From a phage: DNA of 64,000 nt. Below the pieces are notes generated by a model. The model searched no databases, had not been told where the DNA came from, and saw only the letters and a list, made by a program, of their open reading frames with translations. Each line of letters opens with the position of its first letter. The first letter of the stretch is position 1. This document shows, piece by piece, positions 8,624 to 58,983 of this stretch. The DNA is taken from assembly GCA_026066175.1 (NCBI GenBank), contig GCA_026066175.1_4721.1; one strand, 5' to 3'. Position numbers and translations under genes: made by a program.

Positions 8624-8641
8624 CCCTCCCCGGAGGGAGGG
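8624..8641 (-). terminator. GC-rich stem-loop with TTTATGCC tail
   Basis: CCCTCCC / GGGAGGG stem; minus-strand tail TTTATGCCG. Confidence 0.5.
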
Positions 8642-16195: not shown

Positions 16196-16220
16196 TTCTT
16201 TTCCTTCTTATCGGCATAAA

Positions 16221-16239
16221 CCCTCCCATACCGGGAGGG
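16221..16239 (-). terminator. GC-rich stem-loop with TTTATGCC tail
   Basis: CCCTCCC / GGGAGGG; minus-strand tail TTTATGCCG. Confidence 0.5.
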
Positions 16240-16244
16240 TACAA

Positions 16245-31539: not shown

Positions 31540-32559
31540 TTATACCGCTACTTGTGCTTTAATAGCAGGGTGTGATTGATATCCGACGAACACAAAGTCT
31601 TCGTAACGGTAATCCGTGATACTCTCCGGTTTCCGCACAATTTTCAGTTTCGGTAGTGGATACGGCTCACGACTAAGTTGTTCTTTAACCTGTTCGAAGT
31701 GGTTATGGTAGATGTGACAATCTCCACCTGTCCACACAAACTCCCCAACGTCCATGTTCAGCTGTTGCGCAAGCATGTGTGTTAACAACGAATAGGAAGC
31801 AATGTTAAAGGGCGTCCCGAGCAGCGCGTCCTGGCTACGACAAGTCAGCATACACGACAGTGCGCGCGTAGGTACGTTATGCGCATTCAACCAGAGTTCG
31901 GTTTCGCTCTGTTTAACATCGTCGGTAACCCATCGTGCTCTTAGCGCATCGTTGCGGTGGACGTAATAAACACGTTCATCGATAGTGAGTTCATGGGTGT
32001 AGAACTGATAGAAACTGTGGCATGCAGGAAGCGCCATATCGTCTAAATTGCCTACGTTCCATGCGCTAACGATAATCCGTCGAGAATCAGGATCTTCTTT
32101 GAGTTGACGCATCACGTTTGCAATTTGGTCATGGTGTTTAACATACAAGAGATGTTTAACCATACCGTCGTTAACAATACCGCAATACTCATAACCGCGT
32201 TGCATCAAAGTACGGGTACGTTCGGTGTCGTGCGGAACAACAACTTTGTAGTCGATCCATTCACGCCATTGTCTACCGTAAATCGGCCCTAGGTTCCCTT
32301 CTTTATCAGCCCACTCATTCCAAATACGTACGCCGTTATCCTGAAGATACGCGACGTTCGTATCACCGTTAAGGAACCAGAGTAGTTCGTGAACAACGCT
32401 CTTAAGGTGAATCTTCTTGGTGGTGACCAACGGAAACCCTTTCTTTAAGTCAAAATGCATTTGACGTCCGAATACCGAACGTGTGCCGGTACCGGTACGA
32501 TCAGCTTTATCGCGACCGCTATCCATGATGTCTTGTAAGAGATCTAAGTACTGTTTCAT
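31540..32559 (-). CDS. thyA: Thymidylate synthase (ThyA family) with two insertions
   Basis: Collinear with E. coli ThyA from MKQYL..DRTGTGT..FPLVTTK..HELLWFL to [14 protein letters not shown], the catalytic Cys in [21 protein letters not shown] and C-terminal REP.PLPKL; ~40-aa and ~30-aa insertions give 339 aa versus 264. Confidence 0.85.
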
Positions 32560-32768
32560 TTCAATCCTCTAAACGCTTTAGGTAGTTCCTGAAGTTTGTC
32601 ACGATATTTAGAATCGCTTAACGTGTAACAACAACCACGTAACACGTTGTATGCGTAATCAGCTTGTAAACCACGAACCATCGGATCCGACGATAGATTC
32701 AATGGTACATCATCAAAAATCCACACTTCAACGTTCTTCTTGTGTTCCTTCGTTAACATCGTTTTCAC
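32556..32768 (-). CDS. Hypothetical small protein
   Basis: 70-aa ORF, ATGA-coupled to thyA. Confidence 0.35.
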
Positions 32769-32828: not shown

Positions 32829-33692
32829 TTAGTAATAATATCTGATACGTTCGGGTTTTGCTAAAACACTCTGTTCGAATGGCCTTACATGTACGCAAAC
32901 ATCGACAGAATAATAGATACTACCATCGCCACACCATCGCATTACCACACATCCCTTTCTTGTACGAATATGGTAAAACGTCCACTGTGTTTGCCAGTTA
33001 TCGTCTGTGGATTCTTCCGTTCTTTCTTCCGCATCAAGAATCTTTTCACCGACAATATCGCTTAAATCACCATCGATATCGCTGAGATATACCGTCTCGC
33101 AACACTCACGGCTGTGGTACATTTCTACCACGTTATCGTCTTCGCGATGAAAAAGGATAGCTTTACAGTATTCCAGCTGTTCCTCGGTTATTTCTGACGC
33201 GTTAAGTAATTCGTCGTTATCAGTCACCATCCAGATATTTTTGATTACATGCCCGTCGAGCTCCTCCATTGTAAATACCTCGATATTCGGACGAACGGGT
33301 TCAGGTTGAACAATCGGAATACGAACACAACCAATTAAGGCCATCCGTCCTTTCTTTGGTCTAACCGCAAGGTAAGGTGATTTTCTTGGGTGGTTATGCA
33401 GACGTATTTCTAATTCGTCGAATTTAATCCCGTATATACCTAAGAAACGATCGAACAACCGATGAAACTCATCTGTTGCTTCTTCCAACGTTATGGCGTC
33501 TACCGTGAGTTTATGTCCCCTGAACACTCTGGTTAAATCGATAACGTCCAGTGTCTTGAAATATATTTCCGTAAGGGGATGATTTGTATTTTCCAGGTAC
33601 GTAATGGTTCTTTGAACCCAGATTTTAGGCGCAGCGCCTTTAAAACGTTTCAGGTATTTAAAGCGATAACGGGTATGATCTGATGTTATCAT
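32829..33692 (-). CDS. Hypothetical protein
   Basis: Start moved to MITSDHTRY (GAGAGGAGG upstream); the longer ORF would read through the terminator hairpin. Confidence 0.45.
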   Translation of the reverse strand: MITSDHTRYRFKYLKRFKGAAPKIWVQRTITYLENTNHPLTEIYFKTLDVIDLTRVFRGHKLTVDAITLEEATDEFHRLFDRFLGIYGIKFDELEIRLHNHPRKSPYLAVRPKKGRMALIGCVRIPIVQPEPVRPNIEVFTMEELDGHVIKNIWMVTDNDELLNASEITEEQLEYCKAILFHREDDNVVEMYHSRECCETVYLSDIDGDLSDIVGEKILDAEERTEESTDDNWQTQWTFYHIRTRKGCVVMRWCGDGSIYYSVDVCVHVRPFEQSVLAKPERIRYYY

Positions 33693-33766: not shown

Positions 33767-33787
33767 AGCCTCCCTCCATGGGAGGCT
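33767..33787 (-). terminator. GC-rich stem-loop with TTTTATGCC tail
   Basis: AGCCTCCC / GGGAGGCT; minus-strand tail TTTTATGCCG. Confidence 0.5.
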
Positions 33788-33800
33788 TTATTACGATAAT

Positions 33801-34349
33801 TTACATTACGCGGACAGCGAATTCAAGGACGTATACGTCATCGGCGTCCATTGGGTTTGTGGTCGAATAACCAATGAAACAATACCCCATCGCTGAAACG
33901 AAATCTTCGAGTTTATCAATGCTATTTGCGAGAATGCGATCATCGATGCTCAAACGGCATTTACGCGTTATTTTGTTACCGCGCGGTACGGCGGATAACA
34001 AACACATGAAATGCGTGATGCGGTTGTTATGGATAAACTGCGAATAGACATCAGAAGGATTGAGACTCCCCATAACGTCCTGAATGTGTGCACGACGTCC
34101 AGGTGATACATATTCCGAGTATGCGAATGTCGCTACCGTACGACGATCTTCAGTGAAATACGTATTACCTTCAGGGTGGTAGCTCTCCACGGTTCCATCT
34201 TCGCGGGCGACGGTTACGATAGGTGCACCGTATTCGTCACGGCTGAAATCAACTTTGCATTTATCCGTGAGTGGTAGTATCGTGCACGGCTTCGCGGTGT
34301 TCTCATCCGGGAGATCATAACCACTCATCATTTTCAAGAACATAGACAT
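33801..34349 (-). CDS. Hypothetical protein, paralog A of a local three-gene family
   Basis: N-terminus MSMFLKMMSGYDLPDENTAKP..TVATFAYS resembles 34436-34975; C-terminal KITRKCRLSIDDRI resembles 35051-35362. Confidence 0.45.
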   Translation of the reverse strand: MSMFLKMMSGYDLPDENTAKPCTILPLTDKCKVDFSRDEYGAPIVTVAREDGTVESYHPEGNTYFTEDRRTVATFAYSEYVSPGRRAHIQDVMGSLNPSDVYSQFIHNNRITHFMCLLSAVPRGNKITRKCRLSIDDRILANSIDKLEDFVSAMGYCFIGYSTTNPMDADDVYVLEFAVRVM

Positions 34350-34401
34350 AATAGAACCTCATGGTAATAGAAGATAGAGTTAATAGATACTACAACAGAT
34401 T

Positions 34402-34425
34402 GAGGGGGTATTATCCCACCCCCTC
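34402..34425 (-). terminator. Stem-loop
   Basis: GAGGGGGT / ACCCCCTC. Confidence 0.4.
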
Positions 34426-34435
34426 GCAGGGATTA

Positions 34436-34975
34436 TTACTTCTTATAAGGCGTGACTCTAAAGACACCCTCATTCTGATCATAAACAACCACGAACTGTC
34501 CGGCGAATAGATGACGGAGTAATGAGTCGATATTGTTTATAAATTGACTGTCATTTATCTGTACAAAATCGATTACGCGATCTCGCTTCAAACTACGATC
34601 GATTAAGCGTATTTCAAGCAACGCCATGATAAGTTTATCGTTAAGATATCCGCCTGCCTCCAAGGCTTTTCCATAACTGACGTTTTTGATATCAGCACGC
34701 ATACGCTCGACGTCTACCATGGGGAAACCGCAAGAATACGCATATGTTGCGACAGTGTTACCGTTATCCATCACGTAGACGTTACCGCCGGGATAATCGA
34801 TAAAACGTTGGGTTTTGTCACCATGAACAGCGATTTCTAACGTCGGTTTACCCATCGAATTGCGGTTGAATTCGATGGTCGTCAAGCGATCCGGCACCAC
34901 ATGCAGTGTAAACGGTTTCGAGTTGTTTTGATCGCTGGTATCGCAGTTGCCCATCATTTTTACAATAACACTCAT
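34436..34975 (-). CDS. Hypothetical protein, paralog B
   Basis: MSVIVKMMGNCDTSDQNNSKP..TVATYAYS. Confidence 0.45.
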   Translation of the reverse strand: MSVIVKMMGNCDTSDQNNSKPFTLHVVPDRLTTIEFNRNSMGKPTLEIAVHGDKTQRFIDYPGGNVYVMDNGNTVATYAYSCGFPMVDVERMRADIKNVSYGKALEAGGYLNDKLIMALLEIRLIDRSLKRDRVIDFVQINDSQFINNIDSLLRHLFAGQFVVVYDQNEGVFRVTPYKK

Positions 34976-35050
34976 GTTTAACTCCTTAGTAGTCCTAGTA
35001 GTAGTTAATGAGGGAGTTCACCTCATCAGATAACCTATACTGGTAAGATC

Positions 35051-35362
35051 TTACCGAAACGTTACGTGAAATGAAACAATGTAACCTTCTGGTTTGTCAG
35101 CCTTATATCGAGTACAGAAATAACCAAACTTCGTTAGGAATTCACACAACGCATCGGCCTGATATAACGGTATACGGTCGTCATCGAGTAACGAGCATTG
35201 ATGTGTAATCTTCTCCGAAGGATCGACACGACACAAATAAAGAAGGAATCCTACTATAGCCTGATTACTCGTAAAGTTGTCGAACTCGTCTTTGGCTTTA
35301 AACTCTTTAATGGACGTTAGCGTTTTCGTCAATCGCTCACGATCAAGCATGTTAACCTCCAT
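35051..35362 (-). CDS. Hypothetical protein, paralog C (C-terminal domain only)
   Basis: KITHQCSLLDDDRI...GYFCTRY resembles the C-terminus of 33801-34349. Confidence 0.4.
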   Translation of the reverse strand: MEVNMLDRERLTKTLTSIKEFKAKDEFDNFTSNQAIVGFLLYLCRVDPSEKITHQCSLLDDDRIPLYQADALCEFLTKFGYFCTRYKADKPEGYIVSFHVTFR

Positions 35363-35414
35363 ACAAACATAACCCTCCTCCTTCCCTTACGGGTTGGAGG
35401 AGGGGATTATGCTG

Positions 35415-35729
35415 TTATTCTGTTTTAGGTGACGAACCGTTCTTCTTGAAGTCGGATTCGTATTTCACATTAGAATCGAGAACCTCACGAACGGTTTTAT
35501 CTGTACAACCGCGGGCGATATACGCGTTCAAATCGTCACGCAATTTACGCATCGTTGTTTTATCCACATCAGAAACATCTGACTTGGTAAGACGGAATGC
35601 AATCGCATCACGAATTTTATTCAACGTTGCTGGATTATTACGCTGCTCTGCAAATACCGCTTTGATGAAGGTACCGCTGTCTTTCGAAGCAACGGCAGCA
35701 TCAAGAATCTCAATATGCTTTTCAGACAT
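35415..35729 (-). CDS. Hypothetical protein
   Basis: 104-aa ORF. Confidence 0.4.
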   Translation of the reverse strand: MSEKHIEILDAAVASKDSGTFIKAVFAEQRNNPATLNKIRDAIAFRLTKSDVSDVDKTTMRKLRDDLNAYIARGCTDKTVREVLDSNVKYESDFKKNGSSPKTE

Positions 35730-35780: not shown

Positions 35781-37094
35781 TCACTTAGACACCGCCATGC
35801 TTCGCGCTAACGCAACGTCGTACGCATCCATGATTGCGTCGCCGATAGCAGTATGACGAATCAACGGAATACCTACGTCTGGATACTCTTTGGTACCCAT
35901 GATCGATACCGGTTTGTCCTGATAGGCTGCGATCATCGAACGAATGTCCTGAACCTGGTTGTATCGGCAGATGGGTTTAAAGCCTGCTTTACGGAACCAA
36001 TACTCTAATTGAGGCCAATCGGTTTCACCGCGGGCAAGATAATAGAAGGTATCTTTACCGTAGTATTCTGTCATTTTGTCACGAATATTGTTAACGAACG
36101 CATTGACTTCAGCAATGGCTTCTTTATAGCCCATTACCTTACCATGCTGGAAACAATAATCACGTGCTTCTTTCGGTGCTTTGGTTTGCCACCACTCTAC
36201 CGTTGATTCGCTGATACGACCACCGTCAGCGATTTGACCGTGCACGTCAGGGAAGACATCAATACGCGGACCGTTAACGATGGATTCTGGATTAGCCAGA
36301 TCGAAGAACACGATACCGATTTCTAACAACACCCCGTTCTTTTCCAGACTAAGGTTCTCAACATCCAAACAGAATGCAGGCTTCTCTACCGCTAATGGCT
36401 CGAATGAATGGTTGCTGGTATCCGACTCAGCTTCGAGTTCGGTGGCGTCCAGATCGGTATCCGCAGGTTTCAGTTCTAATACAGCATTATCAAGCCCGGT
36501 TAACGAAAAATAGTCTTCGAAGAAATCGGGTACCGTCATGCCATGCAAATCGATACCACAATCTTCCATCCATTGTTTAAACTGGCACTCATCGACATCG
36601 ATCGCTAAACGGCATGGTCCGTAACGATTATCCAATGACGCATCAATCCAGAAGAAAGTGCGTATAAGTAAGTAAGGATTATGCTCCGCGATGATTTCTT
36701 GGCTAGCGTGAGCATCATACACCATTACCTGTATTATTTCCTTACGTGTGTTATACGGATCAACCATCAATCGCCGCACGACTTCTCCCAGGTATTCCAG
36801 CGCACGTGTGTACACGGTAGATCCAACTTGTCCGTACGCGCTTATACCCGTCAATAGTTCCTTATAAGACGCGTCTGAAAGCGAAGACGATAGCACACGC
36901 GCCAGCTCGGCATTGTATATACTGCATGATTTCTTCGGGGCGATAGCATCATGTAACGCTTTAATAAACGCTGGTCCATCAATATCAAACAACCATCCTT
37001 GGCGTCGGTGGGCGGTATATCGTAATAACGCACCGATAGCTGCCTGGGGTGGTGTATATTCTTTTTCGTTAATTTCAAACAGTAGTTCGCTCAT
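35781..37094 (-). CDS. Two-domain protein with C-terminal DnaQ-like 3'-5' exonuclease (DEDDh)
   Basis: Exo I FCLDVENLS (D.E), Exo III RHTAIGDAIMDAYD (H...D); ~200-aa N-terminal domain of unknown function. Confidence 0.55.
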   Translation of the reverse strand: MSELLFEINEKEYTPPQAAIGALLRYTAHRRQGWLFDIDGPAFIKALHDAIAPKKSCSIYNAELARVLSSSLSDASYKELLTGISAYGQVGSTVYTRALEYLGEVVRRLMVDPYNTRKEIIQVMVYDAHASQEIIAEHNPYLLIRTFFWIDASLDNRYGPCRLAIDVDECQFKQWMEDCGIDLHGMTVPDFFEDYFSLTGLDNAVLELKPADTDLDATELEAESDTSNHSFEPLAVEKPAFCLDVENLSLEKNGVLLEIGIVFFDLANPESIVNGPRIDVFPDVHGQIADGGRISESTVEWWQTKAPKEARDYCFQHGKVMGYKEAIAEVNAFVNNIRDKMTEYYGKDTFYYLARGETDWPQLEYWFRKAGFKPICRYNQVQDIRSMIAAYQDKPVSIMGTKEYPDVGIPLIRHTAIGDAIMDAYDVALARSMAVSK

Positions 37095-41754: not shown

Positions 41755-41794
41755 CGTCACCTCCTTTAATAAGTAGCAGGAATGCGGCATAGAA

Positions 41795-41812
41795 CCCTCC
41801 CCGGAGGGAGGG
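41795..41812 (-). terminator. GC-rich stem-loop with TTCTATGCC tail
   Basis: CCCTCCC / GGGAGGG. Confidence 0.5.
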
Positions 41813-41821
41813 TATGTAATG

Positions 41822-45861: not shown

Positions 45862-45890
45862 GCTCTGCCCGAAGGCAGAGCTTTATGCCG
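45862..45890 (+). terminator. Terminator after the SNF2 helicase gene
   Basis: GCTCTGCC CGAA GGCAGAGC followed by TTTATGCCGG. Confidence 0.6.
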
Positions 45891-54494: not shown

Positions 54495-54612
54495 ACCAGG
54501 GATCCTCTTTAAGTGTTCACATTCTAGTGTTAAGCAGTTAAAATAAACCGTTCCTTTAATCAGCATAAGCATCCTCCTCCCACCGCACGGGCAGGAGGAG
54601 GCGTAATATGCG

Positions 54613-58962: not shown

Positions 58963-58983
58963 GGTCCCCCATGACAGGGGACC
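58963..58983 (-). terminator. Stem-loop
   Basis: GGTCCCC CATGACA GGGGACC. Confidence 0.4.

Follow-up and report, generated by a model that had tools for sequence, protein, structure and literature searches.

A copy-number-variable array of two-module accessory genes in a Goslar-like jumbo phage

Positions 33,801 to 35,362 of a 64,000-nucleotide stretch of phage DNA (contig GCA_026066175.1_4721.1 of GenBank assembly GCA_026066175.1; hereafter the window) hold three minus-strand genes, here termed A, B and C, which are true relatives assembled from two swappable protein modules. The DNA of this region is ~79% identical to that of Escherichia phage vB_EcoM_Goslar (Goslar), a nucleus-forming jumbo phage (chimallivirus), and comparison with related genomes showed that the genes belong to a tandem array of accessory genes that is fast-changing and variable in copy number. 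We propose, at a probability of roughly 45%, that these are host-directed early genes whose N-terminal module (N-module) binds a target conserved across Proteobacteria, and that the array reflects conflict. The genes themselves had already been catalogued as hypothetical proteins and as a PHROG family devoid of function; what is new is the two-module anatomy, the full-length relationship of A and B, the unannotated gene C and the array of one to four cassettes, together with the breadth of the N-module, the absence of a structural relative and the link to early expression.

Two protein modules in three genes

The three open reading frames (ORFs) that a preliminary description of this DNA had placed here are all present on the minus strand, with the following parts (aa, amino acids; H, helix; E, strand):

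33801..34349, minus strand: gene A (182 aa; ortholog of Goslar gp143), N-module plus A-type C-terminal module (C-module); from ORF, homology, AlphaFold2 (AF2) model and ratio of nonsynonymous to synonymous substitution rates (dN/dS)
34110..34349, minus strand: N-module of A (residues 1-80), seven-stranded all-beta, phrog_10337 family; from model strands, invariant residues and dN/dS
33804..34103, minus strand: C-module of A (residues 83-182), alpha/beta, order H-H-H-E-H-E-E; from model and homology to gene C
34436..34975, minus strand: gene B (179 aa; ortholog of Goslar gp144), N-module plus a C-terminal half too diverged for sequence detection; from ORF, homology and AF2
35051..35350 (ORF reaches 35362), minus strand: gene C (99 aa), stand-alone C-module, not annotated in Goslar; from homology and conserved start and ribosome-binding site (RBS)

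Residues 1-78 of A align with residues 1-81 of B at 35% identity (BLASTP, E=1e-14), and residues 93-179 of A align with residues 18-100 of C at 30% identity (E=2e-10), the aligned part including KITRKCRLSIDDRI / KITHQCSLLDDDRI. The preliminary description had read the genes as a local three-gene paralog family, based on an N-terminal block shared by A and B and on a C-terminus of A echoed by the short third gene; it had named structure prediction and distribution in related genomes as checks and a lack of significance in formal alignment as the refuting outcome. Both similarities are significant, the shared block extends over ~80 aa, and the relationship turned out to be closer than that first reading had seen. 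Sequence comparison of B with C detected no similarity. When A, B and C were compared with all 700 six-frame ORFs of the window, A/B (E=6e-12) and A/C (E=6e-8) remained the sole matches, and this search revealed no additional family copies in the 64 kb. That the similarity is due to chance, or that the ORFs are non-coding, has only the low pairwise identities (30-35%) in its favour and is refuted by these alignments, by conservation of the genes in many genomes, by dN/dS of 0.14-0.19, by the peptides and transcripts seen for the Goslar orthologs and by folds predicted with high confidence.

The AF2 model of A, built from a 93-sequence alignment, reached a mean predicted local distance difference test (pLDDT) score of 95.1 and a predicted template modelling (pTM) score of 0.84, with residues 3-75 folded as seven beta-strands (E3-8 to E70-75) and residues 83-181 in the order H-H-H-E-H-E-E. 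In the model of B (pLDDT 88.5) the order of elements in both halves is identical to that of A, so that structure prediction shows A and B to share both domains in the same architecture. Further, the B model aligned with that of Goslar gp143 in BFVD across the full 182 columns (TM 0.60, E=1e-11), while proteins sharing the N-module only gave TM 0.38-0.42 in the same comparison. Because TM is 0.60 over the full length vs. about 0.40 for the N-module-only proteins, the models indicate that A and B are full-length paralogs whose C-terminal halves have diverged past sequence recognition; alignment of the C-half of B to the A/C module with hhalign was not significant (E=0.73). Gene C is the C-module alone. 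No solved chain was matched in a profile search of the PDB, and Foldseek against solved structures returned no convincing relative for either domain (best E=0.064). The resemblance of the C-module to small two-layer alpha/beta sandwiches is a generic likeness of fold and not membership, as it differs from TusA/SirA-like and YhbY/CRM-like sandwiches and from Rossmann-like fragments in having three strands only and in not sharing their motifs.

In Goslar, the orthologs of A (70% identity) and B (66%) are gp143 and gp144 (YP_009820828 and YP_009820829), which lie at the same position and are both labelled 'hypothetical'; the A and B alleles of the window are divergent from them. Goslar retains gene C on its minus strand (NC_048170 134263-134595; 5336-5668, minus strand, of the Goslar locus L001) but unannotated, an overlapping opposite-strand ORF, gp145, being annotated in its place. 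The frame of gp145 (plus strand, 75 aa) is broken in the window, where only plus-strand ORFs of 45 and 40 aa occur. Since C is kept in six genomes (dN/dS 0.14) and the gp145 frame is not intact in the window, gp145 is probably a wrong-strand call over gene C. C has its conserved start at the second ATG, 35350, which gives 99 aa, because its GAGG RBS falls within the first codons of the longer ORF and the first ATG is missing in Goslar.

A variable array and a widespread N-module

The array occupies a slot between the gene of the capsid penton 'latch' protein, identified as such by cryo-electron microscopy for Goslar gp146 (preprint, bioRxiv 10.64898/2026.04.21.720040), and the genes for a DUF7448 protein and thymidylate synthase (ThyA). 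In genomes that are otherwise 94-99% identical, this slot holds from one to four family genes, with flanks conserved throughout the relatives (latch gene 94-99%, ThyA 89-97%). In some relatives a fourth paralog, D (~200 aa), lies between C and B, giving the order C-D-B-A. Direct comparison of D with the A/C module was not significant (hhalign, E=0.085); over its full length, however, D aligns with P0039 (E=5e-17), a divergent A-like protein that has an A-type C-module, and this intermediate links D to the A/C module. In one phage, with flanks 94-98% identical to those of the window, the slot holds a single family gene that is 39% identical to A. The alleles are mosaic, such that identity to the related locus L004 is 98% for C, 93% for B and only 73% for A, and identity to L005 is 96%, 65% and 71%, respectively. 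As D comes with an upstream element and a hairpin of its own, each gene can be regarded as a cassette composed of an upstream element, an ORF and a hairpin.

Across six genomes all three genes are under purifying selection (dN/dS of 0.19 for A, 0.18 for B and 0.14 for C). The N-modules of A (0.08) and B (0.05) are constrained similarly to ThyA (0.06) and the latch gene (0.08), and the C-modules (A 0.24, B 0.36) evolve 3-7 times faster. The array compares with T4-like internal-protein loci, which are polymorphic and hypervariable, and with hyperplastic accessory-gene regions and morons of large phages, in that it consists of self-contained cassettes with their own putative terminators and shows presence/absence and allele mosaicism among close relatives. 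It also shares with the T4-like loci a conserved N-terminal part joined to variable C-terminal parts. It differs in that its conserved part is a folded 78-aa domain with no sequence or structural relation to the T4 internal proteins, whose targeting sequence is a cleaved peptide of ~10 aa.

The word 'local' in the preliminary description did not hold. A, B and C are conserved in related genomes, and the N-module is spread across unrelated phages: used in an exhaustive HMMER search, a profile built from A, B and D found 312 representative proteins, each standing for a protein cluster, at E<=1e-3, 56 of them at E<=1e-10. The module begins almost always at residues 1-3 of the protein, and ~60% of the listed proteins consist of it alone (70-120 aa). 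The remainder bear tails, and those of the 55 long members fall into at least 32 unrelated clusters. The signature of the module is KxMSxE(D/N)xxDx(D/N)xxKxF ... GNxYVMNxxGKTIxxF, with K6, M8, D15, K20, G61, N62, Y64 and T71 nearly invariant. It corresponds to phrog_10337, a 99-aa phage family matched by 50 of the 55 long members and, with E down to 7e-19, by typical members found with the profile; B matches it over residues 1-85 (E=2.2e-7), A on its own only at E=0.005. The start of phrog_10807 (379 aa; Erwinia phage RAY gp198-like) corresponds to the module as well, and RAY gp198 begins with it; this protein is not mentioned in the RAY paper. Neither PHROG entry carries a function, domain description or structure. 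The A-type C-module is restricted to Goslar-like phages, as are the C-only gene and the tandem array.

Pfam-A contained no family for A, B or C at E<=0.1, none for 10 further members and, over modules and tails of the 55 long members, none except two chance-level single matches; NCBIfam gave no match above its curated cut-off. The single match in PADLOC-DB, of A to the CARF4 model (36 residues, 14.9 bits, E=0.0024), was not seen in B, C or other members, and no membership of a defence family in that database was found. The idea that the module is a DNA mimic was discarded, as N-modules are only mildly acidic (median isoelectric point 4.8, net charge -4).

In annotated phages the N-module is usually present as a single copy per genome. 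Among chimalliviruses it occurs in the RAY group, 201phi2-1, Phabio and Viktualia, and SA002 was also matched (tblastn); outside them it is found in Caulobacter phiCbK-like siphophages and Bertelyvirus phages, 45-kb Acinetobacter myophages, a Vibrio phage and small metagenomic phages. No phiKZ record was among the matches at tblastn sensitivity, and with this absence, the occurrence outside chimalliviruses and a copy number of 1-4, the family does not behave as a chimallivirus core gene. The position of the gene differs in each lineage. In phiCbK and 201phi2-1 it is a lone gene in opposite orientation, adjoining a helicase gene in the former and tail genes in the latter, where it also sits beside an HNH endonuclease; in small phages it borders the terminase/portal/head block, with long intergenic gaps. 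This placement looks moron-like. In a 28-kb metagenomic phage contig (L014, 5961-6215), a 317-aa N-module protein is encoded ~3 kb from a Tad2-like gene (PF11195, the family of anti-Thoeris sponges) amid many tiny ORFs, a context compatible with an anti-defence island.

Early expression and possible functions

RNA sequencing of Goslar at 30 min has compared control infections with a ChmA knock-down that halts them at the stage of the early vesicle (10.1101/2023.09.20.558163, Supplementary Table 2). In these data gp143 and gp144 were unchanged (log2 fold change, log2FC, of about +0.1, with ~540-640 normalised reads each), while the capsid, sheath, tube, decorator and inner-body genes fell to log2FC of -3.6 to -5.5 (10.1101/2023.09.20.558163). 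Since the structural genes fall and gp143 and gp144 are unaffected, the latter belong to the early class. Further, liquid chromatography-mass spectrometry of Goslar virions detected three gp143 peptides and two gp144 peptides, corresponding to ~6.7 and ~1.7 copies per virion, in a list that also includes host proteins. Detection of peptides at such levels, about 7 and 2 copies per virion, means that the proteins are produced and speaks against their being major structural components; nor do these numbers amount to abundant virion cargo of the T4 type. One gp143 peptide begins with residue 12 (DLPDENNAKPC...), a start that leaves processing by a prohead protease neither demonstrated nor excluded. 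Mentions of gp143 and gp144 in the text of the Goslar virion paper and in a transposon-sequencing (Tn-seq) paper concern phiKZ genes, not those of Goslar, and JADA, the activator of Avs5, is an unrelated 721-aa protein.

Cumulatively, we favour, with the probability given at the outset, the proposal of accessory, host-directed early genes. The N-module would be an autonomous binding domain for a host protein or small molecule conserved across Proteobacteria, because K6, D15, K20, N62, Y64 and T71 are kept across phages of Caulobacter, Acinetobacter, Erwinia, Pseudomonas and E. coli and because the module stands alone in most of the phages that carry the family. The variable C-modules or tails would add or tune a second activity or specificity, and duplication and allele exchange would reflect host-phage or phage-phage conflict in the form of counter-defence, host takeover or competitor exclusion. 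In favour of this proposal are the copy number of 1-4 and the mosaic alleles between conserved flanks, together with the moron-like placement elsewhere, the breadth and N-terminal position of the N-module, its constraint relative to the faster C-modules, the early-class transcripts and the low copy numbers in virions. Several observations weigh against it. The latch gene gp146, which encodes a proven capsid protein, was also unchanged in the knock-down (log2FC +0.1 to +0.4; 10.1101/2023.09.20.558163), so that early transcription is not decisive, and this structural gene itself appears to be transcribed in the early programme. Gene-wide positive selection was not found, all dN/dS values being below 1, and the Pfam, NCBIfam and PADLOC searches revealed no resemblance to known anti-defence, toxin or enzyme families. 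The searchable literature holds no functional experiment on any family member, and a literature search found no genome-wide fitness screen of Goslar. Moreover, three small phages place the gene beside terminase, portal and head genes, which could mean a role in morphogenesis.

The alternative that the proteins are packaged and injected, with the N-module as a capsid-incorporation domain carrying variable C-terminal cargo to the next host, in a role like that of the capsid-targeting sequence of T4 internal proteins, seems to us improbable. It would account for a module that is strictly N-terminal and joined to many different tails, for the peptides in purified virions (~6.7 copies of gp143 vs. 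~7.4 of a virion RNA polymerase subunit in the same table), for the adjacency to the latch gene here and to packaging or head genes in small phages, and for a hypervariability like that of T4 internal-protein loci. However, about 60% of the members are N-modules without cargo, the host proteins in the same list imply that trace levels may be contamination, and 201phi2-1 gp34 was not flagged as a virion protein although its neighbours were flagged by mass spectrometry. The transcripts, too, are early-class, whereas those of the capsid, tail and inner-body genes are late.

Given that the family is not a core gene, that its copy number varies from 1 to 4 with alleles only 39-73% identical between near-identical phages, that its context differs in every lineage (helicase in phiCbK, tail genes in 201phi2-1) and that phiKZ gave no match at tblastn sensitivity, we likewise give little credence to a phage-internal housekeeping role, be it as an accessory factor in packaging DNA or in head morphogenesis, or as a regulator of phage gene expression, even though the gene adjoins terS/terL, portal or head-morphogenesis genes in three small phages that are unrelated, as it adjoins the latch gene here, and the N-module is under strong purifying selection. 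A nucleus-related function, e.g. as import tag or shell-associated factor, brought to mind by the array of a nucleus-forming phage and by N-modules in RAY-group phages, 201phi2-1 and Phabio, is rejected as highly improbable, as the module also occurs in Acinetobacter myophages, phiCbK-like siphophages, a Vibrio phage and small metagenomic phages without chimallin-type biology and the array genes are expressed before the nucleus exists.

Chimalliviruses are shielded from DNA-targeting immunity by their vesicle and nucleus, and little is known about early accessory proteins acting against other host responses. Within the proposal of host-directed early genes it is possible, if on balance unlikely, that the N-module is a new, autonomous phage effector domain whose target is, for instance, a central host protein or a molecule of immune signalling, and that the C-D-B-A array represents arms-race diversification deployed from the early infection vesicle before the nucleus protects the genome. 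If true, this would add a new counter-defence or host-takeover protein family with a previously unseen fold. The analysis turns three hypothetical proteins into a defined two-module family with confident models and a natural series of arrays of one to four copies; it argues for a new entry in the domain-family databases and amends the reference annotation of Goslar. The family is also a concrete and cheap candidate set (N-module alone, N+C, C alone) for anti-defence and host-takeover screens.

Hairpins and neighbouring genes

The hairpins and conserved neighbours of the array are:

35415..35729, minus strand: capsid penton 'latch' gene, ortholog of Goslar gp146, conserved left border of the variable slot; 94-99% identical in relatives
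35373..35404, minus strand: strong hairpin between the latch gene and C, with TTATG behind it; -30 kcal/mol, conserved
35008..35026, minus strand: weak hairpin (5-bp stem) downstream of C; consensus -5.6 kcal/mol
34402..34425, minus strand: hairpin between B and A (GAGGGGGT...ACCCCCTC); annotated terminator in Goslar
33767..33787, minus strand: hairpin downstream of A, followed by TTTATGCCG; annotated terminator in Goslar
32829..33692, minus strand: DUF7448 gene, right-hand neighbour (287 aa from the conserved start), not in Goslar; Pfam PF24240, E=3e-18

The hairpins behind the latch gene, B and A are strong and GC-rich (-17 to -30 kcal/mol). All hairpins of the array are kept in six genomes with varying loops, including Goslar, where the same structures follow gp143 and gp144. 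In the latch hairpin, lineages differ by a reverse-complemented inner part (AACCCGTAAGGGAA in the window vs. TTCCCTTACGGGTT in Goslar and L006) on an identical outer stem, so that this inversion of the tip preserves the structure. The tails behind the strong, conserved stems are of short or mixed type, with TTTTATGCC following A and AATCTGTTGT following B. A simple scan found 8 sites in the region vs. 7.0 expected, sigma-70 promoter and terminator patterns showing no enrichment over shuffles, which is uninformative as such phages use their own RNA polymerases.

In the preliminary description each gene was separated from the next by its own hairpin, taken to suggest independently regulated copies. 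The conserved hairpins are real, though the one behind C has a stem of only 5 bp. Independent regulation found no support, because hairpins occur genome-wide and because gp143 and gp144 are equal in read level and both of the early class. Similar hairpins punctuate the whole window, often followed by TTTATGCC, and TATG occurs within 12 nt after 9 of 36 perfect-stem hairpin strands vs. a background of 2.4%, with the consensus hairpin-TTTATGCCG. A GC-rich GGGAGG-type hairpin with T(T)TATGCC(G) immediately behind it was seen, for example, at 8624-8641(-), 16220-16240(-), 33767-33787(-), 41794-41813(-), 45862-45881(+), 54574-54600 (both strands) and 58963-58983(+). Late promoters of phiKZ carry TATG. 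The punctuation motif may combine a terminator with a phage RNA polymerase promoter, a start site or a processing site.

The DUF7448 gene was found in the window, in L004-L007 and in L015 and is missing from Goslar. Its longest ORF (316 aa, start at 33779) begins inside the loop of the hairpin behind A and is probably an over-extension. The ThyA gene lies downstream of the array, beyond DUF7448. Between the two is a small gene (32556-32768, minus strand) of 70 aa in the window and 67 aa in Goslar, which has 192 aa in L004 (6590-7168) and is split into 81 and 109 aa in L005 (6589-7168) and L006; it is a further indel or fusion polymorphism of the same island. On the other side, a gene for an Rv2179c-like 3'-5' exonuclease (35781-37094, minus strand) is 93% identical to that of L004, 75% to that of L005 and only 53% to those of Goslar, L006 and L015, the Goslar version being shorter (409-417 aa). 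As this gene is mosaic, the variable island reaches beyond the three-gene family.

Goslar-like contigs of ~235-250 kb, traced via protein clusters P0001, P0007, P0012, P0020 and P0202-P0256, are present in many assemblies of isolates that bear the labels E. coli (including O157), Salmonella enterica, Shigella flexneri and Enterobacter hormaechei; such jumbo phages are therefore often sequenced along with isolates of clinical or food origin, owing to a carrier state or to contamination.
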